Shown here piece by piece: positions 2,606 through 63,456 of a stretch of DNA of 64,000 nucleotides. The DNA comes from a virus (Duplodnaviria; Caudoviricetes). How positions within the stretch are numbered: position 1 is the stretch's first letter; each line of letters begins with the position of its first letter. The notes beneath the pieces were generated by a model. That model saw nothing but the letters and a program-made list of their open reading frames with translations, was not told the origin of the DNA and searched no databases. The position numbers were made by a program, and so were the translations under genes. The DNA is taken from positions 1 to 64,000 of IMG/VR virus record IMGVR_UViG_3300017565_000002; one strand, written 5' to 3'.

Positions 2606-2617
2606 AACAGTCTATTA
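2606..2617 (+). promoter_or_regulatory. Late-type promoter AACA-N6-TA
   Basis: AACAgtctatTA, 32 nt upstream of the RNAP beta ATG; an identical 12-mer lies at 56455-56466 on the minus strand. Confidence 0.7.
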
Positions 2618-2649
2618 ATCAGGGAATCAAATAGAGAGGAGATTCAAGA

Positions 2650-5600
2650 ATGATAGATCTAAAGGTTCTTAAACCTAATGTGGTATATCGGATGCAGACG
2701 ACCTTTCGATTACCGACTGAAATGAAAGATCCTTCACATGGTTCTGTTTACATGGCCGTTACAAAAACTCCAGATGGTACCGCCTCCTTTTTTAGTCATC
2801 CAAGATTGGCCGGTCGGTTTCTGTCTAAGTATCTAACCAACCGCATATACAATTATAGGATATATAATCTACTAATTAAGTACAGAGTTAAGGATGGCGA
2901 ATTAAAGCAAGAATTTAATACGAAGATAAAACCAAAGCTTCCGGCTTTGGATCTAGCAATGACGCCGGTTGTACTTGCTAGGCGAAACTACATCTACGAC
3001 TTTTCCCAGTTCAATGAACGATTTTTCGCCACGAATGATACTCGGATTGGCCTACGGCGAGTTAACGAGTATTTTCGATTATTCAAGCTATTTACCGTTG
3101 ATAAGGTAAACCAAACGCAATACACAAACCGGGTGCTATTTATTCCAATCTATGACTGGGTTAAAACAACCCGTGATACCAAACTATTCCGTATCCAAAA
3201 TACGGATAACTTTATTTCGCTATTCTATCTCAAATTGGTCAATGATCCTGATTATTTTAAAACGAATTTTGCCGGATGGAAGTTCTATTTCACAACGGAT
3301 ACGCAATGTCTCTACTGGAGACCAGATGATATTCATGCCAAATCCGCAGAGGAATTAGTTGCTCTGCTCAAGCGGTTCAGACCGGATGGTAAACAAGATA
3401 CGACGGTAACCGACGAAGCTGGGCAAGAAGATATCGAGACAAATGCTGCTACAAACCGAACGTTAATTGCAGATCAAGTATCACAAAACTTAGTTGCGTC
3501 CAATATTGAACCAACGGATCAACTGGTAGGTGCGTTAACCGATAAGGTAATTGAAAAGACGGGAATTAATCTATATTTACCTAATCCGCCATCGATCGAT
3601 GTATCCAAAGTCATCTCACCAAAGGAAATCGAGCTTGAGCAGGTTCAAGAAACGATGGAGCAAATCGTCCCTAAGTCTAGAGCACGCCTAGCGAGAGAAA
3701 CAAAACTGATTGAGGATATGAAGAATATTTCATTTGACGGTATGACGTTAGATGAGATTACAGCTAGGGCTAAAGCAAATACAATTGAAACTACCAAGTT
3801 TCCTGTAGATGTGATTAACCCAAGTTTGGCAGAGATGAAGTTTCCTAATTTTGACGAAGCCTATCTGAAAAATCTATATAAAGCAGATATCGTTAAGATT
3901 GTAACATCCTTTCAGTATAAAGACAAGCCACTGTATTTATTCGAAACCGAGGTTAAAGACGCAAGCGATGCTTTAAATGATCTGGAGGAATATGTCTTCA
4001 GGTTTGAAGATGAAGAAGGTCGTCGTCATACGTTCAGCATCCTCATGCCGAAGTTTACGGATAATCGTACGATGAAAATCGGTGGGAATACAAAGATCAT
4101 GTCCAATCAGATCATTCCTCTACCGATTATTAAAACTAGACCGGATACTGTACAGATATCGACCAATTACCAAAAGGTATTTATCCATCGATTTGGTCAG
4201 CAAATTTCTCCGAAGATTTCCATGCTGTTCAAATCACTAGGCGAACTGATGAATAAAGAAATTAAGATTGAGATCGGTGAAGCGTCGTCTTCCAATCGTC
4301 AATACATTCGGACCATCGAATATGATGAACTTGCATCTCGTTATAGGAGAATTATTCTCCCCCATACCGAGATCCATTTCAACCAGAATGTCATCCGTGA
4401 TGAAATTAAGAAGCTTGGCATTACGGGTACAATTCCGGATAATGCAATCCCTGTAGCGATAAAGAATAAGAGACCTATCTTTTTAAATACCGAAACGAAT
4501 TTGATTTCAGCGGCAGATTCTTCTGCGGTCGAGATGGATCTTGTTGATTTTATCGTCAATGAGATTTCATCCGCAGATCAGTCGTTTAAGTCTGCATTTT
4601 CATCCATGAAACCTGCGAAGAAATTCATGTATTCTCGGGCAGATATCATGGCTAAGAAAGTTCCGATTGTCATCCTCCTCGGGTATCTGGATGGGTTAAT
4701 CGGTTTAATGAAGAGAGCAAAGATTGATTATCGAATCATCACCAAGGATGTAACCCGTCGCAATCTCGACGTAAATACAAAGCGGGAAGCTGTTATTGAA
4801 TTTGAAGATGCATGGTTAGTATATCCAATATACCCGTTGAGAAATTCGCTTCTCTTGAATGGGTTTATGGAGATTCCAACGAAGATTTATCGGATCGAGC
4901 AATTCCTGAGCAAAGATGTTTATCATGAGCTATTCGAGACATTATTCGGAAGAAAAAACATCGGGTATGCATTCGAAAACTTCCAACAGTTGTTAATCGA
5001 CCCGATAACGGAAGATGTACTCCGCGATTATGGTCTTCCGACAGATTTTATCGATGTATTCCTGTATGCCAATACACTATTGGAGGATAACGCATTTAAC
5101 GAAGATAGTGATTTGGATGTACATCGAGTGAGATCAAACGAAATGGTTGCTGCTTTTATGTATAAATCGTTGGCAGAAGCCTACGAACAATACCGATTCA
5201 CGGCAAACAATCCGAATCCAACCCGTGTTTCTACGAGGAAGGATTCTGCAATCGTAAATATGCTGACATCACAGGTCACGAAGGATTTCTCTCGACTGAA
5301 CCCGATTTATACGCTCGAATTAAAGAGTTCCAGCACATGGAAAGGACCGGGTGGTATGAACGTAGATAGAGCCTTTAATCTGTCGAAACGTGCATATCAT
5401 CCATCCATGATCGGTGTACTGAGTCAAGCATCTCCGATTTCTTCTGCTATTGGTATTGCTAGAACATTGACGTTGGACGCAAACGTCATCTCGGCAAGAG
5501 GATATATCCAAACCTCTAAAACCAAAGAAGACATCAATAAGCTACCGACAACCAAACTGATCAGTGCGGCGGAAGCTCTGGTTCCATTTGGTGTGACATC

Positions 5601-6822
5601 TGATGATCCAGAGCGTACCGCAATGACATCTGCACAGAGCCGCCATACCATTGCTTGTATCGGAAGTCAACGCGCTCCGTTGGAAACTGGATTTGAGAAA
5701 ATACTTCCCCATCTCATTGGCGACACCTTTGTATATAAAGCCAAAGATGATGGTAAGATCATTAAAATTGATGAATCAACCAATCTTATGGTCATCAGAT
5801 ATCGTGATGGGAAAATAGAAACCGTCAATCTTAACCCCGAAATGGGTAAGAACTCAGGAAGTGGTTTCTATATTTCCAATAAATTATCACCCCTGTTTAA
5901 AACTGGCGATACGTTTAAGAAAGATACAATTCTCGCCCACAATAAAGACTTCTTTACCATTGATAAACGTTCAGGTAACCCGGTATTTATGACTGGCCCT
6001 TTGGCTCGTATTGCATTCCGCTATTCACCGAAGGTAATCGAGGACTCCACGGTATTATCGACTAGGTTAGCGGAAAAAATGAGTAGCTATATCGTAATAG
6101 AGAAGGAAGTTACACTGGGGCGAAACTCCAATGTAAGCTTTATGATTAAAAAGGGTCAGAATATTGACGTCAATGAACCGCTCATTATCTTCGATACTTC
6201 TCACACAGATGAGTTGACCAATAAAGTGCTTGCGAAGATTGGGGAGGATTCCACCAAGGATCTTCTCGAAGCTTCTAAGACCCCGATAACCTCGAAACAC
6301 AAGGGCGTGATTGAGGACATCAAGATTTATTACACCGTACCCAAAGATGAGTTATCTGACTCCATGCGGAAAATCATCGAAGGATACGAAACCGAGAATG
6401 AAAACCTCATCAAGGCTACTGTGAAAGATACGGGACTTAAGCATGAAGAGGTCAAGATATCCTTGACGCAAGTTGAACAGATCACACCTGACTTGTCCGG
6501 AAAGGTAAAGGGTGTGAAAGTCGGGGAAGGTGTACTGATTCAGTTCTATATTAAGTATAAGGACATATTCGGCGTCGGTGATAAGCTCACTTCTTTCGTA
6601 GCAACTAAAGCCATAGCTTGTGATGTATTTAAGGACGGAGAGGAACCTTATCTATTGAGTGACCCTACAGATAAAATTGATCTATACAGTGGTGTCATAT
6701 CTGTAGGGGCTCGGATGGTCATGAGCCTCCTGAAATCCGCACAAGTTAATGGTGTACTCATCGGTGCAAAAAAAAATGTAGCGAAGATGTATGAAGAAAT
6801 ATATGGCGAAAAGTTGAAATAA
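2650..6822 (+). CDS. rpoB: Phage multisubunit RNA polymerase beta-like subunit (large piece, probably virion RNAP)
   Basis: DDPERTAMTSAQSRHTI (cf. DDANRALMGANMQRQAV), PLETGFE, VGDKLTSFVATK (both catalytic Lys), GARM. Ends before the GEME C-terminus, as in split jumbo-phage beta; long non-RNAP N-terminal extension. Confidence 0.9.
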   Translation: MIDLKVLKPNVVYRMQTTFRLPTEMKDPSHGSVYMAVTKTPDGTASFFSHPRLAGRFLSKYLTNRIYNYRIYNLLIKYRVKDGELKQEFNTKIKPKLPALDLAMTPVVLARRNYIYDFSQFNERFFATNDTRIGLRRVNEYFRLFKLFTVDKVNQTQYTNRVLFIPIYDWVKTTRDTKLFRIQNTDNFISLFYLKLVNDPDYFKTNFAGWKFYFTTDTQCLYWRPDDIHAKSAEELVALLKRFRPDGKQDTTVTDEAGQEDIETNAATNRTLIADQVSQNLVASNIEPTDQLVGALTDKVIEKTGINLYLPNPPSIDVSKVISPKEIELEQVQETMEQIVPKSRARLARETKLIEDMKNISFDGMTLDEITARAKANTIETTKFPVDVINPSLAEMKFPNFDEAYLKNLYKADIVKIVTSFQYKDKPLYLFETEVKDASDALNDLEEYVFRFEDEEGRRHTFSILMPKFTDNRTMKIGGNTKIMSNQIIPLPIIKTRPDTVQISTNYQKVFIHRFGQQISPKISMLFKSLGELMNKEIKIEIGEASSSNRQYIRTIEYDELASRYRRIILPHTEIHFNQNVIRDEIKKLGITGTIPDNAIPVAIKNKRPIFLNTETNLISAADSSAVEMDLVDFIVNEISSADQSFKSAFSSMKPAKKFMYSRADIMAKKVPIVILLGYLDGLIGLMKRAKIDYRIITKDVTRRNLDVNTKREAVIEFEDAWLVYPIYPLRNSLLLNGFMEIPTKIYRIEQFLSKDVYHELFETLFGRKNIGYAFENFQQLLIDPITEDVLRDYGLPTDFIDVFLYANTLLEDNAFNEDSDLDVHRVRSNEMVAAFMYKSLAEAYEQYRFTANNPNPTRVSTRKDSAIVNMLTSQVTKDFSRLNPIYTLELKSSSTWKGPGGMNVDRAFNLSKRAYHPSMIGVLSQASPISSAIGIARTLTLDANVISARGYIQTSKTKEDINKLPTTKLISAAEALVPFGVTSDDPERTAMTSAQSRHTIACIGSQRAPLETGFEKILPHLIGDTFVYKAKDDGKIIKIDESTNLMVIRYRDGKIETVNLNPEMGKNSGSGFYISNKLSPLFKTGDTFKKDTILAHNKDFFTIDKRSGNPVFMTGPLARIAFRYSPKVIEDSTVLSTRLAEKMSSYIVIEKEVTLGRNSNVSFMIKKGQNIDVNEPLIIFDTSHTDELTNKVLAKIGEDSTKDLLEASKTPITSKHKGVIEDIKIYYTVPKDELSDSMRKIIEGYETENENLIKATVKDTGLKHEEVKISLTQVEQITPDLSGKVKGVKVGEGVLIQFYIKYKDIFGVGDKLTSFVATKAIACDVFKDGEEPYLLSDPTDKIDLYSGVISVGARMVMSLLKSAQVNGVLIGAKKNVAKMYEEIYGEKLK

Positions 6823-6826
6823 AGAG

Positions 6827-6854: not shown

Positions 6855-6859
6855 TATTT

Positions 6860-7291
6860 TTAATATAACCTAATACGTTCATTGGAAGAGATATAAATTT
6901 CATCTGCCACCATAGTCGGAACGCTTGTCCCTAATGCATAAACGCAGGATACACGCTCAGCTATGTATTCACGAATCCAGCCAAGATTATCGTTGTATTC
7001 CTTGACTGAATTAAATCTGGTGGATGGTAAGACCAATCGGTCACCCAATACCTCTTCCAGCATATCAAGGATCACAGGCGGCTTATTGGCTTCTTCGTGA
7101 AGTTCTCTGTGCATCCCACTATAATATACCAATAGACGAGTGCCATCACTCTCCACTCCTCGAAGCATACGTTTCAGCCGCAGACGTACTGTGTCCAAAT
7201 CATCAATAAGCGAAAATGAGATCTGAACACACAACTGTTTAATCGGAGTACCCGATTTTTCTGGAGTAACTAATTCAAGAGCATCTCTCAT
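6860..7291 (-). CDS. Hypothetical alpha/beta protein, paralog of 8070..8498
   Basis: Collinear similarity to 8070..8498 (QxxFS..D...VR..L; Y.G..R; D.L.E..G.R.V; V(A)(D/E)E). Confidence 0.65.
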   Translation of the reverse strand: MRDALELVTPEKSGTPIKQLCVQISFSLIDDLDTVRLRLKRMLRGVESDGTRLLVYYSGMHRELHEEANKPPVILDMLEEVLGDRLVLPSTRFNSVKEYNDNLGWIREYIAERVSCVYALGTSVPTMVADEIYISSNERIRLY

Positions 7292-7366
7292 TCATTAACA
7301 CCTGTCCTTTATCCAAATTTATACAATAGTTGGCCCATTGGTAATAAAAAAAGAAGGGCTGTATTT

Positions 7367-7954
7367 CTACAGCCCAAACATATGACGCAACCGGAATTTC
7401 ATCATCGTTGCACTGGTTTTCATCCTTGCTGCGATCAGCGCGGGACGATGTTCCAGTTCATCTTTGAAGATTTCTGTTGGTGTGCGGTCTTCGAGGTCCT
7501 TCGGCAGCTTCTTCAGTAACATCACCTTGGTCTCGCTGACCTTGACGTTTGTGTCTTTGTTTTTGCCCTTCTTTGGTTTACCTGCAAACTTCTCTCCGTT
7601 ACCATATCGAATCGTGGCCGACGACAATGCCGCCTTTACGTTCTCATTGGTGAACAGTGGGATGATCTTGCTGAACAAATCCCCAAGATCCGATTCCAAT
7701 TCCACGATTTGATACAAGCGAAGAATTGAATCGCTCATATCTTTCTTCCGTCCGTCGGTCAAGATTCCTTCCACCCGGCGAGCAACCTTTTTCAGTTTGA
7801 CATCAGCCGCCAAGCTCTCCCTCAGGAAATCTTTGATGCGAGCGGATGTACCGATAGGACCGCGGCGATTGTGGATGGTGATAGACACCGGAGACGAACC
7901 CTCGTGGTTTGGAATCAAACGGATTTTGTTTTCTTTTTCTTTCATTTTAATCAA
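7367..7954 (-). CDS. Basic hypothetical protein (early)
   Basis: 195-aa ORF, SD GGAG, early motif upstream, C-ending codon bias. Confidence 0.75.
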   Translation of the reverse strand: MIKMKEKENKIRLIPNHEGSSPVSITIHNRRGPIGTSARIKDFLRESLAADVKLKKVARRVEGILTDGRKKDMSDSILRLYQIVELESDLGDLFSKIIPLFTNENVKAALSSATIRYGNGEKFAGKPKKGKNKDTNVKVSETKVMLLKKLPKDLEDRTPTEIFKDELEHRPALIAARMKTSATMMKFRLRHMFGL

Positions 7955-7984
7955 TCTCCTTTAATTTATAGTCTCATTCCTGTA

Positions 7985-7996
7985 TATGATATATAA
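7985..7996 (-). promoter_or_regulatory. Early-type promoter TTATATATCATA
   Basis: Reverse complement of tatgatatataa, upstream of 7954. Confidence 0.6.
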
Positions 7997-8026
7997 CCGA
8001 ATATATGTATTTTTACGAAAAAAAGG

Positions 8027-8048
8027 CATAGGGGAAATCTCCCCTATG
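8027..8048 (-). terminator. Intrinsic terminator
   Basis: catagggg/cccctatg stem, T-run on the minus strand. Confidence 0.7.
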
Positions 8049-8069
8049 GCTGCGTTTTTATAATTTTGG

Positions 8070-8498
8070 TCAAACCCGGCGAATGAGTATATTGTTACCT
8101 ACACTTCCGGAGAGAAGTGATACCTCTTCTGCAACACCCTTCGGCAATTTCAATCCAAGCAGGACTCCACCGTATAACTTACTAACCATATTAGCTCGGA
8201 TTTGTGACAAACCCTTCAGGTATGCCGTGGCAGATTCATAATCATCTGCGACATAGACCACACGTGATCCACCAAGCTCGTCCAGTATATCAACGGCTTC
8301 AGTTGACCATCCCTTTTCTTGAACCATTGCACGATTCAGGCCAAACCAATAGAAATGATAATCAACACCCGTCTTTATCAAATCGTTGACCAATATTGCA
8401 AGGTTCTCTCTGACGAGCCGCATGTCATCATGTTCGACAGAAAACATCAATTGAAGATTTATACGCTTCGGTTTTATCTCATGCATCGACACTGTCAT
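8070..8498 (-). CDS. Hypothetical alpha/beta protein, paralog of 6860..7291
   Basis: See 6860..7291; SD AGGAGGAGG. Confidence 0.65.
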   Translation of the reverse strand: MTVSMHEIKPKRINLQLMFSVEHDDMRLVRENLAILVNDLIKTGVDYHFYWFGLNRAMVQEKGWSTEAVDILDELGGSRVVYVADDYESATAYLKGLSQIRANMVSKLYGGVLLGLKLPKGVAEEVSLLSGSVGNNILIRRV

Positions 8499-10218: not shown

Positions 10219-10230
10219 AACATCCAATTA
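10219..10230 (+). promoter_or_regulatory. Late-type promoter AACA-N6-TA
   Basis: AACAtccaatTA upstream of 10263. Confidence 0.65.
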
Positions 10231-11039: not shown

Positions 11040-11048
11040 ATATATTAT
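11040..11048 (+). promoter_or_regulatory. Early-type promoter ATATATTAT
   Basis: Immediately upstream of the RNase H gene. Confidence 0.5.
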
Positions 11049-11066
11049 ATATGCGCTATCATAATA

Positions 11067-12407: not shown

Positions 12408-12418
12408 GTATATATTAT
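12408..12418 (+). promoter_or_regulatory. Early-type promoter GTATATATTAT
   Basis: Upstream of the kinase gene. Confidence 0.6.
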
Positions 12419-12466
12419 AGGAGTGTAGTATTATAATGAAACTAAATAGAGGGAGTGTTTTAAGGT

Positions 12467-16332: not shown

Positions 16333-16344
16333 AACAAATGAATA
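16333..16344 (+). promoter_or_regulatory. Late-type promoter AACA-N6-TA
   Basis: AACAaatgaaTA upstream of 16393. Confidence 0.55.
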
Positions 16345-19780: not shown

Positions 19781-19792
19781 AACAGAAAATTA
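19781..19792 (+). promoter_or_regulatory. Late-type promoter AACA-N6-TA
   Basis: AACAgaaaatTA upstream of the baseplate/beta-prime operon. Confidence 0.65.
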
Positions 19793-22896: not shown

Positions 22897-24108
22897 GTGA
22901 TGACTATGAGACTCCTTACAGAGGTCGAAGTTGAAGAGATTCTGAAACTTAAGCAGGATGATATCACCAATACCTTGCTGAAGTCTTACTTTGGGCGGAC
23001 AGTCAAGAGACCAACAGCTCGATTCTCAACGACGGATTACTTTATGCTACCGGAAAATGCATGTGCAAAAAATCTTCCCGGTTATACGACACTTGGAGCC
23101 TACATCTTTAATCGGCTGATTATCGATGTACACTTCTCCGATGTGACCGGATATGTCAACGCTCCTATAACGGGAAAGAACTTAAATGCTGTATACAACC
23201 TTATTTCCGAGGCATATGCGAATGACCGTGTCAACTGGGAGCAGTTCTTTGAATTGATTGATTCATTGGATTGGCTTGGCGGTGGAGATATAGCAGAGTT
23301 GATCAACGTGTCGTTGTCAAATAATCTTTTTATCCTCCCACCACACATTAAGCAAAGACGCGAAGAATTATTCAAAGAATATGAGAAAGAAATCCAAGCC
23401 GGGGATGTAATTGCAGGTGCGAAAATTGAGCAAGAGCTGGTAAAAATGGCCCAAGCCCATCTTCAAACACTCCCGGAGTGGGATAACTTCGCATCAGATG
23501 CCAAACTTAATTTCGATAATAACTACAAGACAATGATGCTAATGAAAGGTCCGATACTTAACACAAGTACAGGTGACTGGGAGATTGCAACCTCCAACTA
23601 TGATGATGGCATCCGTAAGGAAGAGTATCCGCTCTTTGCCGACTCCGCTGTCTATGGTACATTCCAACGGGCAAAAGGGGTTGCAATGGGTGGATATGCG
23701 ATCAAGAAAATCATTGCGACATTACAAGATGTAGAAACCGCGGATAAGGATAGTGACTGTGGCACCAAAGACTACCTAACAACCTTCATCGATCCGTATT
23801 TCAAAAGCGAACTCATGTATATGTATATCGTCGAGGGATCAAAACTCGTCTTACTGACACCCAAGAATTTTGATCAGTATAAGGGGAAAACAGTACAGAT
23901 GAGAAGTCCGATGTATTGCAAACATGCAGTTCCATTAGTATGTAATAAATGTATGGGTGAACAGCCTTATCAGAAGGATCTGAAGATGGTTGGGTTGGCT
24001 GCTGGTAAGATCGGTTCGACACTGCGGGTTAAGAAGCTGAAGGCTTTCCACAATAAGAAGGTTTACATCTATCGAGCAACGATAGCTGATTTGGTCGGCG
24101 ATGATTAA
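22897..24108 (+). CDS. rpoC: Phage RNAP beta-prime C-terminal piece (probably virion RNAP)
   Basis: Bridge-helix-like GGYAIKKIIATLQDV, zinc site DCGT...RSPMYC...CNKCMG, trigger-loop-like VGLAAGKIG...KAFH. Confidence 0.85.
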   Translation: MMTMRLLTEVEVEEILKLKQDDITNTLLKSYFGRTVKRPTARFSTTDYFMLPENACAKNLPGYTTLGAYIFNRLIIDVHFSDVTGYVNAPITGKNLNAVYNLISEAYANDRVNWEQFFELIDSLDWLGGGDIAELINVSLSNNLFILPPHIKQRREELFKEYEKEIQAGDVIAGAKIEQELVKMAQAHLQTLPEWDNFASDAKLNFDNNYKTMMLMKGPILNTSTGDWEIATSNYDDGIRKEEYPLFADSAVYGTFQRAKGVAMGGYAIKKIIATLQDVETADKDSDCGTKDYLTTFIDPYFKSELMYMYIVEGSKLVLLTPKNFDQYKGKTVQMRSPMYCKHAVPLVCNKCMGEQPYQKDLKMVGLAAGKIGSTLRVKKLKAFHNKKVYIYRATIADLVGDD

Positions 24109-24140: not shown

Positions 24141-24194
24141 TTTTATTTATCATGTAACACATGTATAGCACTGGCCCTTTGCTCTCATTTCAGG

Positions 24195-24205
24195 TTATAT
24201 ATTAT
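24195..24205 (+). promoter_or_regulatory. Early-type promoter TTATATATTAT
   Basis: Upstream of the 24243-26347 operon. Confidence 0.65.
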
Positions 24206-24242
24206 CGATCTGAAAGGAAAAAGTTATTCGGGAGGGACTAGA

Positions 24243-24829: not shown

Positions 24830-26347
24830 ATGCAAGAGACGATGAGTAATGGAGATGTACTAGACTACCGCGACGTAAAGCAGTTCAAGATTCCTAAGAT
24901 TACTCGCTATTTTGAAGACTATGATCGACCCATCAAGAAAGAAAAGCTTGAAAAGGCCGGTCTGGATGAACACGCAGAAGCTCAGATCAAATCAGGTAAA
25001 GGATTCCTAATCACAAACCCGGAATCGGTTGACAGCGACGGAAAGAAAACGATCGACGGTATATTCTCTCCCAAGTTTGGCTACACGCAGTTCGATGATC
25101 AACTAGGGACGAAGGATGCTTATCGTTGTCAATGTGGTGAGACCACAGGTGCAATAAATCTTGATGAAATCTGTGAAGTATGTGATACACCCGTCCAATT
25201 CATGGATGCAGACCTCACGATCATGGGTTGGATACCACTAACTCAATATGTCGTTATTAATCCATCTATGTACATCCACTTGGATGCATTATTCGGAAAG
25301 GGTGAACTAGAGGAGATCCTCAAGGTCAATACTTCCAGAATCACAGTGGATGGTATATTGAAAACGGAAACTGATCCAAAGAAACCTTATCATGGTGTAG
25401 GGATGATTTATCTCCATACACACATCGATGAGGTGATGGAGTATTATCTCAAGCAAAATCCAGCAAAGAAAGAGCATTACGATTTACTCCTCGAATACAA
25501 GATGGCGATCTTTACTCACTATGTCCCGGTATATAGTGCGATCATTCGCCCCCATATCGAGAGTAACGAAAAGGTCAGAATATTCCCGGTCAATACAATC
25601 TATGAGACAATCATGAATCACTACCAGCAAATCATGAGTGAACCCGGAAATATGCTGGCGATTCTTCCGGCTCTACATGAAATCCAGCAGGAATTCAATG
25701 AGCTACACGAATTGATTATCAAGACATATATCGGCAAGGAAGGCATGTTCAGGGGTAACTTCGGTGGTGTCCGGATTGACTATGCAGGACGAAGCGTAAT
25801 CATTCCGGGCGTAGATCTGAAGCCTGATGAGATTAAGATTCCTTATATCAGCGCTGTGGTATTCTTGGAATTGGAATTGATTTACCTGCTATGCATTCTC
25901 GATGATATTACCGAAAATGAAGCGTATCAGGTAATCAATGAAAGCCTCAAAGTTTTCAACCCAAGAATCTATGCGTTGATTCAAACCATTCTACAGAAAA
26001 GTAAGACGCCCATCTCCGCATTGGTGGGTAGACCTCCATCACTATCTGACCGATCGGTTCGATTGCTTCGAATCGTTGGCGTGGAAGATAGTGTGGACAA
26101 ATTGTGTATGCGTTTAAGTCCGAGTCTTTTGGATGGATATAAAGGTGACCACGATGGTGACAGTCTATATTATATTCCATTGAAAGATCATCGCCTGATC
26201 AAGACGTTTGAGCAAACCTTGAGTCCGAGGTATAACTATATCTCTAGGACGAATGGTTTATATTCCAACCGAATGGAGTATATCAAAGATTATATCATCA
26301 TTCTCTCTGAGCTGTATTCATTGGCAAAGGATAATGATGACGATTAG
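24830..26347 (+). CDS. rpoC: Phage RNAP beta-prime N-terminal catalytic piece (probably non-virion RNAP)
   Basis: GIFSPKFG, zinc finger CQCG...CEVC, FRGNFGGVRIDYAGRSVI, GRPPSL, GDHDGD Asp triad. Confidence 0.9.
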   Translation: MQETMSNGDVLDYRDVKQFKIPKITRYFEDYDRPIKKEKLEKAGLDEHAEAQIKSGKGFLITNPESVDSDGKKTIDGIFSPKFGYTQFDDQLGTKDAYRCQCGETTGAINLDEICEVCDTPVQFMDADLTIMGWIPLTQYVVINPSMYIHLDALFGKGELEEILKVNTSRITVDGILKTETDPKKPYHGVGMIYLHTHIDEVMEYYLKQNPAKKEHYDLLLEYKMAIFTHYVPVYSAIIRPHIESNEKVRIFPVNTIYETIMNHYQQIMSEPGNMLAILPALHEIQQEFNELHELIIKTYIGKEGMFRGNFGGVRIDYAGRSVIIPGVDLKPDEIKIPYISAVVFLELELIYLLCILDDITENEAYQVINESLKVFNPRIYALIQTILQKSKTPISALVGRPPSLSDRSVRLLRIVGVEDSVDKLCMRLSPSLLDGYKGDHDGDSLYYIPLKDHRLIKTFEQTLSPRYNYISRTNGLYSNRMEYIKDYIIILSELYSLAKDNDDD

Positions 26348-26392: not shown

Positions 26393-26404
26393 AACAATCC
26401 ATTA
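26393..26404 (+). promoter_or_regulatory. Late-type promoter AACA-N6-TA
   Basis: AACAatccatTA directly before SD GGAGG of 26417. Confidence 0.65.
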
Positions 26405-28886: not shown

Positions 28887-28898
28887 TAATTGATTGTT
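28887..28898 (-). promoter_or_regulatory. Late-type promoter AACA-N6-TA
   Basis: AACAatcaatTA. Confidence 0.65.
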
Positions 28899-28918: not shown

Positions 28919-28929
28919 TTATATATTAT
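28919..28929 (+). promoter_or_regulatory. Early-type promoter TTATATATTAT
   Basis: Upstream of ppk1. Confidence 0.65.
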
Positions 28930-28970
28930 GGAACTGAATATGGGGTTCTACTTAATAGGAGGTATGTAAA

Positions 28971-34071: not shown

Positions 34072-34083
34072 TAATGAGATGTT
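34072..34083 (-). promoter_or_regulatory. Late-type promoter AACA-N6-TA
   Basis: AACAtctcatTA. Confidence 0.65.
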
Positions 34084-35984: not shown

Positions 35985-35996
35985 CAACAAGTTGTT
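35985..35996 (-). promoter_or_regulatory. Late-type promoter variant AACA-N6-TG
   Basis: AACAacttgtTG directly above the SD of the amidase gene. Confidence 0.5.
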
Positions 35997-42580: not shown

Positions 42581-42581
42581 T

Positions 42582-45662: not shown

Positions 45663-45711
45663 TTTCTCTTCCTCCTCTAAAATATCCTTATTTAAAGGTT
45701 GATAAAGATAA

Positions 45712-50374: not shown

Positions 50375-50386
50375 TATAATGATGTT
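50375..50386 (-). promoter_or_regulatory. Late-type promoter AACA-N6-TA
   Basis: AACAtcattaTA. Confidence 0.65.
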
Positions 50387-56454: not shown

Positions 56455-56466
56455 TAATAGACTGTT
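56455..56466 (-). promoter_or_regulatory. Late-type promoter AACA-N6-TA
   Basis: AACAgtctatTA, identical to 2606-2617. Confidence 0.7.
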
Positions 56467-56809: not shown

Positions 56810-56878
56810 ACTAAACTTTATTCTTTTAACCATTAGATAAGCAGAATGGATAGAACTTATCGAAATGAGGGATGAAAT

Positions 56879-57733
56879 ATGGGTAAGCTATTACAGGATT
56901 ATATAAAGCACAGAGAGATAGAAAGAGAATCTCAAAAGAGAAGAGAGAACTTCTTCTTCTTAGGAGGATTCATAAGTATCTTCTCGATTATTATTATTCT
57001 ATATGTGGCAATCTATTACGTAGAGCAGCATGATCCAACAAAAGATCTATACTTCTATCCATCGACAAAAACAGAAGCAAAGTCAGAAAAGGGAGAAGTC
57101 TATCAGATTGAAAATATATTCCCAGCTTATGATAACTACAACTTCTTCTTAGAGAAAAAAGCTGTGAACTATAAAACCATGTATGGATTAATTGGGAGAA
57201 AGTTTGATATTCATTCTTTCAGGGAATCCTATGAGTTTAGTATTATCAAAAATCCCGATAACGATATTGCAAATGGGTATGGTATTAAGAGATACTACAT
57301 CTACTCATTAATCAACGATAAAGATCCGGTAGCTATCTTATATGTAGAGAAAAGTGAAGGCATGATCATAGGTGTAACAAGTCCTTATTTGATTAATGCA
57401 GAGTTTAAGGATATGACACTCAATGGTTCTAACTTTACAGAGGTAACGAGATTGAATGATTTTATGATAGGAGAAGACAAGAAGCATTATACCTTTACCC
57501 ATTATGGGGGAGACTTATACTTAGCAACGACAGAAGGTAACGAGTATGGATATAAGAGTAATGATCCTTTAATCTATACAGCAACCATCTACAGTAAGAA
57601 GTCGATTAATTCAATCTTACAACTGATTGATTTCTATAAGGATAATGAAAACTACGTCACAGCATACTTTTCAATCTTCTTAAACGATAAGTATCAAGTT
57701 ATCTATCAAACACTCGTCAAAGAGAAAGGGTGA
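56879..57733 (+). CDS. Single-pass membrane protein with extracellular domain
   Basis: TM FFFLGGFISIFSIIIILYVAIYY near the N-terminus. Confidence 0.75.
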   Translation: MGKLLQDYIKHREIERESQKRRENFFFLGGFISIFSIIIILYVAIYYVEQHDPTKDLYFYPSTKTEAKSEKGEVYQIENIFPAYDNYNFFLEKKAVNYKTMYGLIGRKFDIHSFRESYEFSIIKNPDNDIANGYGIKRYYIYSLINDKDPVAILYVEKSEGMIIGVTSPYLINAEFKDMTLNGSNFTEVTRLNDFMIGEDKKHYTFTHYGGDLYLATTEGNEYGYKSNDPLIYTATIYSKKSINSILQLIDFYKDNENYVTAYFSIFLNDKYQVIYQTLVKEKG

Positions 57734-57761: not shown

Positions 57762-58709
57762 TTAATCTACGATATCCGATACATTCTTCTCAATCTTCTT
57801 ATAGATGGTATTCAGGTTAACCCCAATCTCTGTGGTAATCTTATTGACATTGACTGTACCAGAGAGACAAGCGGTAGATATCAGCATATAGAAGAAGTAG
57901 GGGATATATTCTGGTGCAAACATGGTGGTTGATCCATAGGATAAAGACCAACGATCTACAAAGTTTTGGAAGGTTACTTTCTTCATCTCTGGAAATACAC
58001 GAACCAAGCTTTCGATAAAAGTTTTCAAATCTTCGTAAGAAGAATTCTCTCCATACATTTTAAACTTGGCATCTAACGCTGCAATGTTTTCTTTCGAGTT
58101 ATACTTAAGCAAGTTTCCATAAGGATTCGTGAATACCTTATCTGGACCATAGATATTGTAGAAGTAGAAGTTCGTGGTGAGGTATTGAAGTTTTTCCCTT
58201 TTAAGCTGATCCACATAAGCAAGATTGCTTATAATGTTTGTAAACAATCGTGCATAGATCATATACGTATCTCTTGCATAGGAGAGGATACTATCATCGA
58301 TGATCAAACCAAATGCAGCGGACAATAACATCGCATACAACGTATTCGGTGCAATATTGATCCGACCATCTTTATGCATGGTACAGAAATTTGTGATATT
58401 GACCACAATACATACCCGACCATTCTCTTGCTTACGGAAAAAAGGAATGGCATTTGTCAAACGCATCTGATCATTGTAGACCATTTTAATCTTTCCACTT
58501 TTGACGAGCTTATCAATGGCATACTTAGCAAAGTACGGAGAAGTACGAGAGGTGATATCTGACATTACATCTTCAATCATCTCATACTCAATTTCGATTG
58601 TACCATTCTTCCGTAGACTATAAGCCATAATAGTCTGGGTTAAACTTTGATTCGTAGCTTGTTCAGCAAACGTATAGATTGAAGACGTGATCAGGGACTT
58701 AAGTGCCAT
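57762..58709 (-). CDS. Putative virion structural protein
   Basis: 315-aa ORF, SD GGAGGT, AACA-N6-TG promoter variant at 58762-58773. Confidence 0.55.
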   Translation of the reverse strand: MALKSLITSSIYTFAEQATNQSLTQTIMAYSLRKNGTIEIEYEMIEDVMSDITSRTSPYFAKYAIDKLVKSGKIKMVYNDQMRLTNAIPFFRKQENGRVCIVVNITNFCTMHKDGRINIAPNTLYAMLLSAAFGLIIDDSILSYARDTYMIYARLFTNIISNLAYVDQLKREKLQYLTTNFYFYNIYGPDKVFTNPYGNLLKYNSKENIAALDAKFKMYGENSSYEDLKTFIESLVRVFPEMKKVTFQNFVDRWSLSYGSTTMFAPEYIPYFFYMLISTACLSGTVNVNKITTEIGVNLNTIYKKIEKNVSDIVD

Positions 58710-58817
58710 TAGGAATACCTCCTATATTGTCATGTAATTAGAGAATCTCCGATAAATCTTTCAATTACTTGTTTTATAATAAAAAGAGGGAGAGTCTTGA
58801 TGACTCTCCTTTGATAT

Positions 58818-59816
58818 TTAATCTTTCTTATCATTACTTGCTTTCGGGCTACCACCCTTTTTAGTCAGTTCCTTAATCAATGCTGTGGTATAAGACATTG
58901 CTCGCCAGAAGATATTGATCGCAGTGGTGATAAACTGTAATAATGCATCCATAGTACCAGTCATGATTGCAAGACCACCACGTCGTTTATGCTCATCCAA
59001 GTCTCCCTTTATTCTCGTATTCAGGAAGGCACGTTCAAGTTGTCCAAGCTCGGAGATAATCTTGGTTTTCAACGGATTCAAATTCTTAAACATCTTCGCA
59101 CAGGTATCCAATGCTTTAGCGAGACCTGATAGATTTAGCGAGGATATACTATGACTGGTTTTATTCCCAAAGAATGCAGTGGATGCACCTTGAGGGGTGA
59201 AACCATCTTTAGTTTTTTCCAAGTGGAACAATTCCCCGATCCACTTATTCAATAATTCTTGTTTTGTATCTTCCCGTATACCGTTTATTTTTACACCACG
59301 TCTGGATGCATCAACCATTGCTTTTTCCATCTCTGGTGATGTGCCATTCTTGGCAAATCCTTCGAGTGCACCAAACGATTTAACGGCAATATCCAATACC
59401 TTATTGGGTTCGATATCAGAGATCTTCATTAACCCCTCTGGGTAACTGATGGTTCCAGAGAGATTCTTTATATCGAGATTATCTATCTTCCTTTTTAAAT
59501 CATCTACATGTGCTTCGAAAGAACCCTTAAACTTATCCATCATCCAGTTTAAGAATTTTGCAATCTTCTCTTTGATGTAAGAGATGAAAATCTTGAATCG
59601 GTTTCCAAACTCCTCTTGTGCTTCGACGAATAACTGATCCGAAGATTCAAGTAGTTTATCGAACCCGGAGAGAGATTCAAATAATTCATAGGATTCAATA
59701 ATCCAAGATGAATTACGGAATTCGTTTTCATCAGTGATTGTGAAGTCTAGTGTATCACCAGATGGATCAACGATGTCACCCTCACGAATCATTCTAAGTC
59801 TTTCGTGGATATTCAT
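58818..59816 (-). CDS. Putative inner-head protein, paralog 1
   Basis: MNIHERLRMIREG tag, Glu-rich propeptide-like N-terminus, amphipathic FISYIKEKIAKFLNWM helix. Confidence 0.6.
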   Translation of the reverse strand: MNIHERLRMIREGDIVDPSGDTLDFTITDENEFRNSSWIIESYELFESLSGFDKLLESSDQLFVEAQEEFGNRFKIFISYIKEKIAKFLNWMMDKFKGSFEAHVDDLKRKIDNLDIKNLSGTISYPEGLMKISDIEPNKVLDIAVKSFGALEGFAKNGTSPEMEKAMVDASRRGVKINGIREDTKQELLNKWIGELFHLEKTKDGFTPQGASTAFFGNKTSHSISSLNLSGLAKALDTCAKMFKNLNPLKTKIISELGQLERAFLNTRIKGDLDEHKRRGGLAIMTGTMDALLQFITTAINIFWRAMSYTTALIKELTKKGGSPKASNDKKD

Positions 59817-59844
59817 ATGTGGTTTTCCTCCTTGAAGCTGTAAT

Positions 59845-59856
59845 TAATTAGCTGTT
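59845..59856 (-). promoter_or_regulatory. Late-type promoter AACA-N6-TA
   Basis: AACAgctaatTA. Confidence 0.7.
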
Positions 59857-59867
59857 TAAAAAGGAAA

Positions 59868-59894
59868 GTAGAAGGGAGTCAGTCTCCCTTCTAC
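59868..59894 (-). terminator. Intrinsic terminator
   Basis: gtagaagggag/ctcccttctac stem. Confidence 0.75.
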
Positions 59895-59902
59895 GTCTCA
59901 AG

Positions 59903-60880
59903 CTACTCTTTATTCTTAGAACTCTTCACAAGCGTATTCGCAATACGAGCGAAATGATCCAGTGCCTTCCAGAAGATATTCAGTATGAAGGTGATGCACG
60001 TCAGCATCGCATCCATAGCACCCATGATCGCAGAGAGAATTCTTCTCCTTTCGTTGTCTTTCAATTTAGGACTGAAGGTAGTTCTTTCAAGTTGTCCTAA
60101 TTTAGAGACGAGTGTAGATTTTACGCTTGAGATACCATTGAATACACCAACGGTGGAATCTAGACCTTTTGTGAAGCGAGCCGTGTTTATCTCAGAAAGT
60201 TCTACTTCCTCAGTATCCCCGAAAATTTGTGAATCGATGACACTTTGCGAAATTTCGCCTTTTTCTGTTACGAGTCCTTTCATGTCGAATAACTCACGCA
60301 TGATTTGTTCTATGGTATTGTGTTTAACGGCCTTCCGTATGTCCGAGCTGGACGCGTTTTGGTCATTGGCGATATCCCCTACCAACCCGTCCATTATATC
60401 TTTGGAGTCACCGGTGCTCATATAGCGTTGAATCATTTGATGTAATTCACCAAATGCTCCAGCGATATCCGAAGCCTTGATTTCCTCAATTGCTTCTAAA
60501 TTCTCCGGTACTGCAATTGTTCCCTTTAAGTCACTGGTGTTTATCGACGATAGCTGTTTCTTTATCGCTTGAACCTTGGATTCATAGGTTCCTTTGAATT
60601 TCGCCATCATCCAGTTTAAGAATTTTGCAATCTTCTCTTTGATGTAAGAGATGAAGACTTTGAAGTGACTACCGGATTCTTCTCTCGTTTCTAAGAAGAG
60701 ATCAGACGATTCCAGCAGTGCATCAAACCCGGAGAGAGATTCAAATAGTTCATAGGATTCAACAATCCAAGATGAATTTTGGAACTCATTCTCATCTGTG
60801 ATTGTAAAGTCCAGTGTTTTACCGGAAGGTTCAATGATATCCCCTTCTCGGATTAGTCTAAGTCTTTCATGAATATTCAT
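59903..60880 (-). CDS. Putative inner-head protein, paralog 2
   Basis: First ~95 aa nearly identical to paralog 1, including a shared 48-nt exact DNA block. Confidence 0.6.
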   Translation of the reverse strand: MNIHERLRLIREGDIIEPSGKTLDFTITDENEFQNSSWIVESYELFESLSGFDALLESSDLFLETREESGSHFKVFISYIKEKIAKFLNWMMAKFKGTYESKVQAIKKQLSSINTSDLKGTIAVPENLEAIEEIKASDIAGAFGELHQMIQRYMSTGDSKDIMDGLVGDIANDQNASSSDIRKAVKHNTIEQIMRELFDMKGLVTEKGEISQSVIDSQIFGDTEEVELSEINTARFTKGLDSTVGVFNGISSVKSTLVSKLGQLERTTFSPKLKDNERRRILSAIMGAMDAMLTCITFILNIFWKALDHFARIANTLVKSSKNKE

Positions 60881-60906
60881 GTATATTTCCTCCTTAGTCT
60901 ATCGTT

Positions 60907-60918
60907 TAATTACTTGTT
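60907..60918 (-). promoter_or_regulatory. Late-type promoter AACA-N6-TA
   Basis: AACAagtaatTA. Confidence 0.7.
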
Positions 60919-60957
60919 TAAAAAGTGAAGGAAGGGGAAGAAATCCCCTCTCTTTAG

Positions 60958-61875
60958 TTATTTTGACTTTTCAATCATGATATGCAATAGGTTATACATA
61001 ATGATCGCGGACTTCAGCATAACACGAGCTAGGGTATTGTATACGATAAGAGATGCGTTGTATAGTTTTGGTGCTGCATCCATTGCCAGCTCAATATACA
61101 CAGGGTTCTTACTATTTTTGATGAGTTTATCTAGGTTTGTAATATCTGCTCTGAGTGTATATTGCCACTTGCTACTACTTTGCTCGAACTCTTTTACAAT
61201 TGTTTGGAACTGTCTGATAAGTGTGCGTTTGGAAATATCATTTACCTTAACTGATTCTACTGGTCCAAAGATGAACTTTGACATGGCATCCACATCAGAT
61301 GTATCAATCTTGTATCCCCTGAAGACTACAAACCTAAGGTAGTTTTCAGCGATATGCTCTGCTGATGGTGCGACACCATGATTATTCACATATTCGGTAA
61401 ACGCACCACGAGGGAGTTCATTCGCTACGCCTGTTTCAAGAATACTATTCATTGCATCACGCATGACTTCTTGTAGCATAGGTAAGATAACCGTAATATC
61501 AATCTGTGGTTCAGTTAGGAACTTAGGGATACTCTGGACCATGGCTGGATCGGAGAACTCCCTTATCTTAGATGCATTCCGATTGACGTGATCCAGTCTC
61601 CGTCCGAAGTCAGCCTCTACTTTCTGTGTGAATAAACGGAAGAAGCTGATGATTTTGTCTATGATAAAACGGAGAAGGTCTTTGAATCGTTCATATAGAT
61701 GATAACGATTCTGTTTCATATCTGCATATATTGCACCCAAACTAGATTCTTGCATAAGTGTCTGTGCGTTAGCTATTTGATAGTAGGCTTGCTCGAATGT
61801 GAGTGTCTTGTACGAATCATTGGTTTCTACAAAGACACCCTCTGTGATCATCTTAATGCGCTCTGCAATATTCAT
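60958..61875 (-). CDS. Putative inner-head protein, paralog 3 (divergent)
   Basis: MNIAERIKMITEG tag, FKDLLRFIIDKIISFF helix. Confidence 0.55.
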   Translation of the reverse strand: MNIAERIKMITEGVFVETNDSYKTLTFEQAYYQIANAQTLMQESSLGAIYADMKQNRYHLYERFKDLLRFIIDKIISFFRLFTQKVEADFGRRLDHVNRNASKIREFSDPAMVQSIPKFLTEPQIDITVILPMLQEVMRDAMNSILETGVANELPRGAFTEYVNNHGVAPSAEHIAENYLRFVVFRGYKIDTSDVDAMSKFIFGPVESVKVNDISKRTLIRQFQTIVKEFEQSSSKWQYTLRADITNLDKLIKNSKNPVYIELAMDAAPKLYNASLIVYNTLARVMLKSAIIMYNLLHIMIEKSK

Positions 61876-61946
61876 GATTTACCTCCTGTATCTGGTGTAT
61901 TTTAATTTGAAAGTGAGAATCATGATGATTTCCATATTTTTCATTC

Positions 61947-61972
61947 TATTTAGCTGTTTGAACATAGAGGTA
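61947..61972. promoter_or_regulatory. Back-to-back divergent late promoters
   Basis: TA-tttagc-TGTT-tg-AACA-tagagg-TA serving 61875(-) and 62005(+). Confidence 0.7.
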
Positions 61973-62004
61973 AGCAGTTAACTTAACATCTAGGAGGCAC
62001 AACC

Positions 62005-62778
62005 ATGAGTATTGAAGTAACTGTAAGTGTAACGTTGCCAATAGACGATGCCAAGGCCCTGCTCTCATTTCTGGCAGGTATGAATGCACCTGTGATCATT
62101 GATCCGCCTATACCGGAGGGTGATGATCCGGTGGATGATATCCCAGATGTACCACCACCTCAAATTATGTATGAGACAAAGGTTATCTATGGTGTAAACT
62201 TTAGGAGTATTCCTAATACATCATCGGAAAGCTATGTCTATCGCATGATACCTAAGGGTGAGGATATACATGTCATTGAGCAAATAGACGATGGTTGGCT
62301 TAAGATTATTGTTCAGGATGGTACGGTAGGTTATATTTCCGCCCTTCCCAAATATACAACCTATTCGCAATCCTCCGATCAAGATAAAACAGCGGACAAG
62401 CTTATTAGCTATGGAGAATCTTTCATGGGTGCTCCCTATAAATTTGGTGCAAAGATGGACGAGCTTGTAGATGGTGTTAGGGTATTCGACTGCTCGTCAT
62501 TTGTAAAGACAGTATTCCGGGATGTATTAGGTATATCACTACCTAGAGTATCGAAAGACCAAGCAACGGTTGGTACTGATGTGAATAAAGAAAATCTCCA
62601 AAAAGGAGATCTAGTATTTTTCACAAGTCGGAATCTGCCTGTTGGACATGTTGCAATATACGCCGGGAATGATAGACTTCTCCATACCTATTCGATTGCA
62701 TCCGGTGGTGTCAGATATACCGGATTTAAAGGAACTCAGTGGGAAGATCGGTTTACAAGTGCAAGACGTCATATTTAA
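62005..62778 (+). CDS. SH3b + NlpC/P60 peptidoglycan endopeptidase
   Basis: VNFRSIP...KGE.IHVIEQ.DDGWLKI (SH3); FDCSSFV...GDLVFF...GHVAIY...LLH (C-H-H triad). Confidence 0.9.
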   Translation: MSIEVTVSVTLPIDDAKALLSFLAGMNAPVIIDPPIPEGDDPVDDIPDVPPPQIMYETKVIYGVNFRSIPNTSSESYVYRMIPKGEDIHVIEQIDDGWLKIIVQDGTVGYISALPKYTTYSQSSDQDKTADKLISYGESFMGAPYKFGAKMDELVDGVRVFDCSSFVKTVFRDVLGISLPRVSKDQATVGTDVNKENLQKGDLVFFTSRNLPVGHVAIYAGNDRLLHTYSIASGGVRYTGFKGTQWEDRFTSARRHI

Positions 62779-62788
62779 GAAAAATATA

Positions 62789-62812
62789 ACCCTCTGCAAT
62801 TATGCAGAGGGT
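62789..62812. terminator. Bidirectional terminator
   Basis: accctctgca/tgcagagggt stem between convergent genes. Confidence 0.8.
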
Positions 62813-62817
62813 CTTTT

Positions 62818-63420
62818 TCAATTCGAGTATTTTTCAACAAGTCTGTCGAACTCGCCAATATAGAACTCAAGTTTAGCGATATTCTTTTTCAGTTTAGCTA
62901 CCTTTCTCTTATCGGAAAAATTTGAAGATGCTGAAAGTTCGGATACCCGTTTTTCCAGCTCCTTCTTGAATTTAAGGGCCTCGGATTTATATTCCTTTGC
63001 GGTTTTGGCATCCATACCACCAATAGCACGGGCCCTCGAAAATAATCGTGTGATCATTGCATAATTCCCGAACCACATATAACTACCTCTGGTCGTAGTC
63101 AACTGATTGACCAGTTTGAGGTCCTTCAATATTTTACTAGGAGGCAATGTGCTCATGTATGCTTTATATCCAGTCTTAACTTTTTGCCAAGCTGAGGCGT
63201 CCTTGGACTTTTCGGCTTCCGACGATTGTTTGATCAAATCGACCAAGGAAGCACCGCCAGCCGCCTCAAACATATATCCATCTACATTTTCGGTCTCAGA
63301 TAAAAAGAATTCCAACGCTGTCTCTTTTAGAAATTCTTCTTCATCTTCATCAAACGCCACGTCCAAATCTTCCAAGGCTTCTCCTTCTCGGATTAGTCGT
63401 ATGCGATCTTTAATATCCAT
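62818..63420 (-). CDS. Putative processed head protein carrying the IREG N-terminal tag
   Basis: MDIKDRIRLIREG, acidic propeptide-like first ~55 aa ending MFE-AAGG, basic mature part. Confidence 0.55.
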   Translation of the reverse strand: MDIKDRIRLIREGEALEDLDVAFDEDEEEFLKETALEFFLSETENVDGYMFEAAGGASLVDLIKQSSEAEKSKDASAWQKVKTGYKAYMSTLPPSKILKDLKLVNQLTTTRGSYMWFGNYAMITRLFSRARAIGGMDAKTAKEYKSEALKFKKELEKRVSELSASSNFSDKRKVAKLKKNIAKLEFYIGEFDRLVEKYSN

Positions 63421-63444
63421 GCTCTAACCTCCATTGATTTCGAT

Positions 63445-63456
63445 TATGATAATGTT
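63445..63456 (-). promoter_or_regulatory. Late-type promoter AACA-N6-TA
   Basis: AACAttatcaTA. Confidence 0.65.

Follow-up and report, generated by a model that had tools for sequence, protein, structure and literature searches.

To our knowledge, the non-virion RNA polymerase (nvRNAP) of phage AR9 is the only RNA polymerase (RNAP) known to read a −10-like element in the template strand, and its need for uracil has been interpreted as a means of distinguishing phage from host DNA. The late promoters of AR9 and PBS1 have the consensus AACA-N6-T[A/G] and are read by a holoenzyme of nvRNAP and gp226 (PMC5312081, PMC5449584, PMC9209446; PDB 7S00/7S01/7UM0/7UM1), which in AR9 needs U at template positions −11 and −10 (PMC9209446). 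At −10, the methyl group of a thymine would clash with V206 of gp226, and the V206G enzyme accepts −10T and −10U equally (PMC9209446). The early promoters of AR9, AAATATATATTAT-N6-G, are read by the virion RNAP (PMC5312081). Uracil DNA was shown experimentally in AR9/PBS1, phiR1-37, and S6 (PMC7598289, PMC8460666), and it is indicated in LPJP1 by polymerase sensitivity (PMC8460666). Here we analyze AACA-N6-TA motifs, and the genes whose products may read them, in a stretch of 64,000 nucleotides (nt), hereafter the window, which is the first 64 kb of the 215,803-bp IMG/VR virus record IMGVR_UViG_3300017565_000002; coordinates marked "genome" refer to the whole record. We propose, with a probability of roughly 0.7, that this phage uses an AR9-type program of two polymerases and two promoter classes on thymine DNA, with a −10 pocket that would have been remodeled naturally.

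The record is a single contig with direct terminal repeats, rated 100% complete, with a guanine plus cytosine (GC) content of 41.2% and a non-coding share of 10.6%. Its sequence is present in soil-metagenome DNA contigs only, according to the sequencing-run listing, in which no RNA holders are listed. When the virion-RNAP gene (2650-6822) was compared by megablast with GenBank phages, no near relative was found, and the best tblastn matches of its protein, at ~30% identity, were AR9/PBS1/Goe21, Listeria phage LPJP1, Yersinia phage phiR1-37, and Staphylococcus phage S6. Two relatives were compared as whole records, G001 (206,953 bp, 34% GC) and G002 (246,689 bp, 44.6% GC), whose reciprocal-best orthologues show 47-49% protein identity.

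The earlier note on this DNA had listed 14 exact copies of AACA-N6-TA in the window, and every coordinate and strand that it gave is correct. Each of these copies is intergenic and lies 13-76 nt 5' of a start codon backed by a Shine-Dalgarno sequence; a further, fifteenth exact copy, absent from that list, occurs at 24156(+). The description of these copies as a window-wide network holds upstream of genes, where 44 regions (3,776 nt) contain 15 sense copies compared to 1.67±1.28, and never more than 7, in 500 dinucleotide-preserving shuffles, and fails for the window as a whole, where the 33 matches show no enrichment and are below the 48.2±6.3 of the shuffles. The AACA-N6-TA signal is positional. 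Genome-wide, 35 of the 94 copies are in non-coding DNA, and 28 of these 35 lie ≤80 nt upstream of a same-strand gene, compared to 5.9±2.3 sense copies in shuffles, with 10 upstream copies in antisense orientation. The leaders predicted throughout the genome are mostly 25-40 nt long.

An unbiased enumeration of gapped dyads in the genome ranks AACA-N6-TAA first after the Shine-Dalgarno sequence, with 21 copies observed and 1.09 expected. The clade consensus, A-AACA-N4-A-W-T-A-A, is slightly longer than that of AR9. When the late-motif logo is compared with 90 kb of AR9, the core consensus, the spacing, the preference of A over G at +1, the A at −3, and the W at −2 are all shared, whereas an extra preference for A at −12 and +2, adding ~0.7 bit of information, is specific to the motif described here. 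The sites in the window, with gene starts and +1 positions predicted from the sequence, are the following, all late promoters being putative:

2606..2617, plus strand: late promoter AACAGTCTATTA, predicted +1 at 2617, before the virion-RNAP beta gene 2650-6822; AACA-N6-TA kept in the G002 orthologue.
10219..10230, plus strand: late promoter before gene 10263-10997 (phrog_12252, function unknown); motif kept in both orthologues, flanks diverged.
16333..16344, plus strand: late promoter before gene 16393-17097; the orthologues retain AACA-N6-T[AG].
19781..19792, plus strand: late promoter before the virion structural gene 19830-22058; motif kept in the G001 orthologue.
24156..24167, plus strand: late promoter adjoining an early motif, before gene 24243-24809 and then the nvRNAP beta-prime-N gene 24830-26347.
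26393..26404, plus strand: late promoter before gene 26417-26788.
28887..28898, minus strand: late promoter, predicted +1 at 28887, before gene 28489-28866; kept in both orthologues.
34072..34083, minus strand: late promoter before gene 33008-34039; motif kept in the G001 orthologue.
50375..50386, minus strand: late promoter before the fiber-like giant gene 45751-50331.
56455..56466, minus strand: late promoter before gene 52626-56417 (1,263 amino acids, Laminin_G_3 domain); kept in both orthologues.
59845..59856, minus strand: late promoter before gene 58818-59816 (paralogue family).
60907..60918, minus strand: late promoter before gene 59903-60880 (paralogue family).
61947..61958, minus strand: late promoter candidate before gene 60958-61875, 72 nt away.
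61961..61972, plus strand: late promoter before gene 62005-62778 (tail/lysin-like).
63445..63456, minus strand: late promoter before gene 62818-63420.
35985..35996, minus strand: AACA-N6-TG variant, plausible but weaker, before the endolysin gene 35146-35970; not kept in the G001 orthologue.
58762..58773, minus strand: AACA-N6-TG variant before gene 57762-58709; the G002 orthologue has AACAGCTAATTA at the same position.
45689..45700, minus strand: AACC-N6-TA variant, unconfirmed, before gene 42582-45662, which has no orthologue for comparison.
56828..56839, plus strand: AACC-N6-TA variant, unconfirmed, before gene 56879-57733; motif absent from the G002 orthologue.

The site at 61947 is less certain, because it has the longest leader of the set. 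The copies had been described as mostly preceding structural or lysis genes, which fits the genes for virion RNAP beta, a virion structural protein, the fiber-like giants, the tail/lysin-like protein, and the endolysin (the last with the TG variant only), but several other downstream genes match no family. The major capsid homologue also has an AACA motif upstream. No other promoter motif occurs before the genes 3' of 19830-22058, including the virion-RNAP gene 22897-24108, so that they probably form one operon from the 19781 promoter. As for the variants, both TG sites proposed in the note are present and their class is weakly enriched (14 of 67 intergenic, ~7 expected), while both AACC sites are present in a class that is at chance level, with 33 copies in the window where 35 are expected; of the 101 copies in the genome, no more than 3 lie ≤80 nt 5' of a gene on their own strand. 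We therefore rejected AACC-N6-TA as a promoter variant on its counts. TACA-N6-TA was likewise rejected as a second subclass, as it shows no orientation bias, and A at −11 is specific in this clade.

In the region 57762-63420(-), the genes are arranged in tandem, each with its own late promoter. Two of them, 58818-59816 and 59903-60880, are paralogues with 46% identity, and the products of 60958-61875 and 62818-63420 have a common N-terminal motif, M-(N/D)-I-x-(E/D)-R-(L/I)-(R/K)-(M/L)-I-(R/T)-E-G.

The motif is also conserved between genomes. The orthologue comparisons with G001 and G002 comprise 35 pairs scored as late/late, 25 as late/not late, 22 as not late/late, and 156 as not late on both sides (odds ratio 9.9, p 8.9e-12). 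Before orthologues, the AACA motif lies at the same distance from the ribosome-binding site, with the N6 spacer and the flanks diverged beyond recognition. In coding DNA, AACA-N6-TA is ~2-fold depleted on both strands compared to synonymous-codon shuffles (z −3.5 to −6.1 in three genomes), while the permuted controls ACAA-N6-TA and CAAA-N6-TA are undepleted and AACA at other or neighboring spacings is partly depleted. This depletion suggests selection against spurious late promoters, and its presence on both coding strands argues for a signal at the DNA level, not at the RNA level.

The candidate reader of the motif is encoded in the same genome. A single homologue of AR9 gp226 occurs at genome 140572-142062 (496 amino acids, E 3.4e-23); its sole solved relative is AR9 gp226 itself (PDB 7s01_A, E 6.6e-20; hhalign probability 99.5%), which is also the best Foldseek match of its AlphaFold model (6e-13). 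The search for homologues of the split nvRNAP subunits covered betaN, betaC, and beta-prime-N, and located betaN at genome 94370-96187 and betaC at genome 87860-89956. The window itself contains the third nvRNAP subunit and two virion-RNAP subunits:

24830..26347, plus strand: nvRNAP beta-prime-N, homologue of AR9 gp270 (7s01_d, E 1.3e-36).
2650..6822, plus strand: virion-RNAP beta-like subunit of 1,390 amino acids, of the AR9 g078 / phiR1-37 g099 type; no solved relative.
22897..24108, plus strand: virion-RNAP subunit, homologue of AR9 g264 (E 2e-67); no solved relative.

Besides the late class, another motif, TATATTAT-N6-G, is enriched, with support of equal strength. Across the genome, 23 of its 27 copies are intergenic compared to 2.9 expected. 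Copies in sense orientation amount to 16, compared to 0.37 in shuffles, and those in antisense orientation to 3, and the motif is kept before orthologues in G001 and G002 with an odds ratio of 45.5 (p 5e-12). Both motif classes are similarly enriched in these two relatives. Like the early promoters of AR9, the motif consists of the TATATTAT core and a G six bases downstream, and it occurs before nvRNAP genes and the gp226-like gene; the AR9 gene g226 similarly has an annotated early promoter. Unlike in AR9, the upstream AAATA is weaker here, with usually only (T/C)A before the core. The motif is found before the genes for betaC, the gp226-like protein, 24243-24809 (directly 5' of beta-prime-N), an RNase H-like protein, and a polyphosphate kinase. 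The copies in the window are:

363..377, minus strand: early-type promoter TATATTAT-N6-G, facing a gene with its start at 336 that continues beyond the edge of the window.
11041..11055, plus strand: early-type promoter before the RNase H-like gene 11085-11828; kept in both orthologues.
12411..12425, plus strand: early-type promoter before gene 12467-14149; kept in G002.
24198..24212, plus strand: early-type promoter before gene 24243-24809 and the nvRNAP beta-prime-N gene.
28922..28936, plus strand: early-type promoter before the polyphosphate kinase 1 gene 28974-31367; kept in both orthologues.

The last of these genes (28974-31367(+)) encodes a full-length polyphosphate kinase 1 with four PPK1 Pfam domains. 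No clear third promoter class was found in the remaining intergenic gaps, many of which hold hairpin-plus-T-run terminators or degenerate TATATA-type motifs. Several leftward genes at 413-2498(-) and 6860-8498(-), separated by gaps of 60-150 nt, have neither promoter motif; some of these gaps contain hairpin-plus-T-run terminators or degenerate TATATA-type sequence, and variant early promoters or operons are possible.

The two motif classes are distributed as in AR9, with the nvRNAP genes behind early motifs and the virion-RNAP genes, together with structural genes, behind AACA motifs. The machinery (a homologous gp226-like subunit and split nvRNAP subunits), the early-promoter core, and this early/late wiring strongly support the claim of the earlier note that the phage uses the same late program as AR9. 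We hypothesize that the AACA-N6-TA motifs are the late promoters of a phage-encoded AR9-type nvRNAP with split beta and beta-prime subunits and, as its specificity subunit, a sigma-like homologue of gp226. If it acts as in AR9, this enzyme would read 3'-TTGT-5' in the template strand at −11 to −8 and would start at the A of TA. TATATTAT-N6-G would serve as early promoter for the injected virion RNAP, and this early class would drive the nvRNAP and gp226-like genes, whose products would switch on the AACA class (virion RNAP, capsid, fibers, and lysis). There are also differences from AR9: the proteins are only ~25-34% identical, and the GC content is 41% here compared to 28% in AR9.

A further difference from AR9 concerns nucleotide metabolism, and it bears on the proposal that the phage may have deoxyuridine (dU)-substituted DNA, which our results do not support. 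ThyA is encoded at genome 119877-120785, with a full-length PF00303 match of 243 bits, a score above the TIGR03284 cut-off, and 48% identity to the thymidylate synthase of phi3T. Its translation shows PC, RSxD, PFN, HxY, a C-terminal VAI, and the folate-site tryptophans, and we take PC, RSxD, PFN, HxY, and VAI to correspond to sites of the Escherichia coli thymidylate synthase. A dUTPase matches the equivalog NF001862 with 141 bits compared to a cut-off of 103, with strings in its translation that presumably represent all five dUTPase motifs, and a thymidylate-kinase-family gene is encoded as well. By tblastn, neither AR9 Ugi nor the AR9 dCMP deaminase (gp221) has a match in the genome, in which PF00383 is also unmatched, although the absence of Ugi is weak evidence because Ugi is small and fast-evolving. 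PF02511 has no match anywhere in the genome, and the open reading frame 8627-9583(+), considered as an inactive ThyX, matches no family in Pfam (E up to 1) or PHROGs (E up to 0.001). In the control genomes AR9, phiR1-37, S6, and LPJP1, we found no ThyA, ThyX, or dUTPase-family genes. The two genes flanking ThyA have orthologues that flank a ThyX-family gene in G001 (94772-95977) and in G002 (41650-42831), indicating that the same syntenic slot was filled by a thymidylate synthase twice. Thymine DNA is most likely, because the phage is predicted to make thymidine monophosphate and to destroy deoxyuridine triphosphate, and with thymine DNA the enzyme must accept T at −11 and −10.

The gp226-like protein differs from AR9 at the position that matters for −10. 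AR9 D204-V205-V206-I207-W208 corresponds without gaps to D222-S223-G224-M225-W226 here, and BLASTP, phmmer, MAFFT, and hhalign agree on this alignment. With I207 aligned to Met and Y210 to Arg, all three contact positions are changed in the 2.1bis helix, which reads D-S-G-M-W-T-R compared to D-V-V-I-W-T-Y in AR9. The pattern D-x-V-I-W-x-[Y/F] is common to AR9, S6, phiR1-37, and LPJP1; in an alignment of 11 sequences of the clade, ten show D-x-G-M-W-x-R and one shows D-G-R-M-W. The glycine at the residue of the thymine-methyl clash is thus the one engineered in the AR9 gp226 V206G holoenzyme (PMC9209446), occurring naturally in this clade, but the neighboring contact residues are changed too, and T at −11 would have to be tolerated as well, a tolerance not reported for V206G. 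It is plausible that G224, with the equivalents of I207M and Y210R beside it, is part of a T-accepting adaptation. The fallback put forward in the earlier note, a T-tolerant variant, is the one favored by the ThyA, dUTPase, and kinase genes and by the replacement of V206 with Gly. We found neither natural V206G-type gp226 nor AACA-type promoters in thymidylate-synthase-encoding phages in the literature searched.

Across 73 gp226-like loci in IMG/VR, the V206 column contains V, G, T, P, L, K, R, M, or S. As a predictor of thymidylate-synthase content this column was rejected, since it fails across 25 gp226-encoding records, in which Val-type metagenomic records carry ThyA or ThyX. One IMG/VR contig, 3300025000_000053 (249,853 bp; loci L010 and L018), has two different gp226-like genes near its opposite ends and may be a two-strain chimera or an over-length assembly. 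In the gp226 tree, one clade comprises the three uracil-DNA phages, on long branches and with 99/95 support, and the other clade consists of all thymidylate-synthase-encoding records, IMGVR_UViG_3300017565_000002 included.

The unbiased dyad enumeration was repeated on three more whole records, G013, G010, and G012. (A)ACA-N6-TAA ranks first in G013, which encodes ThyA and a dUTPase-like protein (AACA-N6-TAA 38 compared to 1.8 expected), and in the ThyX-family-encoding G010 (40 compared to 2.6 expected). For G013, the ThyA score exceeds the equivalog cut-off, and dUTPase is the best-scoring assignment of the second gene. In G012 (loci L129-L141, ThyX), ACA-N6-TAA is seventh, after TATA-type dyads (40 compared to 2.9 expected), and −11 is mostly G, giving GACA-N6-TAA in DNA outside open reading frames; the base at −11 therefore differs between lineages. 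The occurrence of the motif in distant thymidylate-synthase-encoding records indicates that it is a property of the gp226-bearing group, and no indicator of uracil DNA. The balance tips modestly toward the AACA-N6-TA late system being common to large, mostly uncultured gp226-encoding jumbo phages, most of which would make thymidylate, with uracil dependence being the specialization of one lineage.

Several observations weigh against an AR9-type program on thymine DNA in which the glycine has a causal role. In AR9, the exclusion of T at −11 comes from packing of the DNA backbone, not from V206 (PMC9209446), so that full tolerance of T requires more than the glycine. Val is retained, as N-[ST]-V-I-F, in the records G013 and G015-G017, each of which has a ThyA-family and a dUTPase-family gene; AACA-N6-TAA, examined among these in G013, is present there too. 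G012 likewise keeps Val and encodes ThyX. Within the D-x-x-x-W group, Val and Gly follow a single phylogenetic split and do not constitute repeated evidence. The AlphaFold2 model of the gp226-like protein has a predicted local distance difference test (pLDDT) score <50 at residues 209-238, and it therefore supports the overall fold match only, not the structure around G224. The betaN residue that stacks at −10 (AR9 gp105 R363) corresponds to Tyr here, in a region of low conservation. The ThyX-family proteins of G001 and G002 are atypical, with ~400 amino acids and RHR and S-x-R-Y in different halves, and ThyA-family and kinase enzymes can serve modified-base pathways. Finally, we infer the start sites and timing, the template-strand reading, the base present in virion DNA, and any causal part played by the glycine. 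In view of these caveats, we see in the glycine a plausible contribution and no proof.

The first alternative is that the DNA is dU-substituted as in AR9/PBS1 and that nvRNAP needs template dU at −11 and −10, with ThyA and dUTPase being inactive, otherwise employed, or acting on the host pool only. The identical promoter consensus, the gp226 homologue, and the presence of both AR9 promoter classes would all be expected in this case, the nearest characterized relatives of the virion-RNAP beta subunit are the uracil-DNA phages AR9/PBS1, phiR1-37, and S6, and, as in uracil-DNA phages, a chimallin-like shell gene was undetected, which is weak support. Nevertheless, we consider dU-substituted DNA unlikely. 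ThyA is intact, the dUTPase reaches the equivalog level, and a thymidylate-kinase-family gene accompanies them, while Ugi, dCMP deaminase, and PF00383 are without match, a combination that makes uracil dependence improbable; the four control genomes have no ThyA, ThyX, or dUTPase-family gene. The V206 equivalent is Gly, the GC content of 41% compares to 26-28% in AR9 and LPJP1, and the gp226 tree separates the uracil-DNA phages from all thymidylate-synthase-encoding records.

A second alternative, to which we assign an equally low likelihood, is that thymine is modified (e.g. 5-hydroxymethyluracil or a post-replicative hypermodification) and that the glycine pocket fits a bulkier C5 group. The ThyA family includes dUMP hydroxymethylases, phages with 5-hydroxymethyluracil encode dUTPase-like enzymes, several neighboring genes match no family, and a glycine would lift the steric limit at C5. 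However, the similarity of ThyA to the phi3T enzyme, its score above TIGR03284, and its VAI and folate-site tryptophans are those of true synthases, and in the relatives the slot of ThyA is occupied by a member of the ThyX family, which consists of reductive methylases with no hydroxymethylase variant known to us. No hypermodification gene was recognized, with no dedicated search made.

A real motif with another reader, such as a late activator, host RNAP with a phage factor, or an RNA-processing or leader element, is still less probable than a modified base. The A-W-T-A-A part does resemble AT-rich −10-like or T4-late-like elements, and the assignment of the motif to nvRNAP and gp226 is based on sequence. 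Against another reader, no sigma70-family gene was found in the genome, the motif is identical to the AR9 nvRNAP consensus mapped by experiment, down to the spacing and the A/G preference at +1, motif and gp226-like genes co-occur in distant lineages, and the depletion concerns both coding strands. An effect of chance or composition, whereby a short AT-rich pattern is commoner in AT-rich intergenic DNA, could account for the low window-wide count, the AACC counts, and the unoriented TACA-N6-TA, but it is refuted by shuffles of the same regions (1.7 vs 15 in the window, 5.9 vs 28 in the genome), the orientation bias, the fixed distance to the start codon, and orthologue conservation (p ~1e-11).

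An AR9-type program on thymine DNA would also invite comparison with phiKZ, whose phage RNAP has five subunits, the fifth (gp68) being sigma-like, and which, probably like the present phage, has thymine DNA; in fold, the gp226-like model weakly matches nvRNAP chains of phiKZ. Unlike here, the late promoters of phiKZ have another consensus, TATG, and phiKZ has a phage nucleus, whereas a single-sequence search with its chimallin-like shell protein gp54 gave no match in our genome, which is a weak negative.

If this reading is true, the clade represents a natural thymine-reading version of the AR9 enzyme, with the same Val-to-Gly change that converts it in vitro, and provides a natural enzyme that can be tested directly alongside the engineered V206G form. 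In the literature, the promoter system is joined with uracil DNA; here the two come apart: as the genes indicate thymine DNA, an AR9-type promoter system is not tied to uracil, and neither the AACA-N6-TA motif nor a gp226 homologue is a suitable predictor of uracil DNA in metagenomic phages. A thymine-DNA phage with a promoter of ~14 bits and no detected nucleus shell must avoid transcribing host DNA in some other way. Together, the two promoter classes give an early/late gene map for an uncultured soil phage family.

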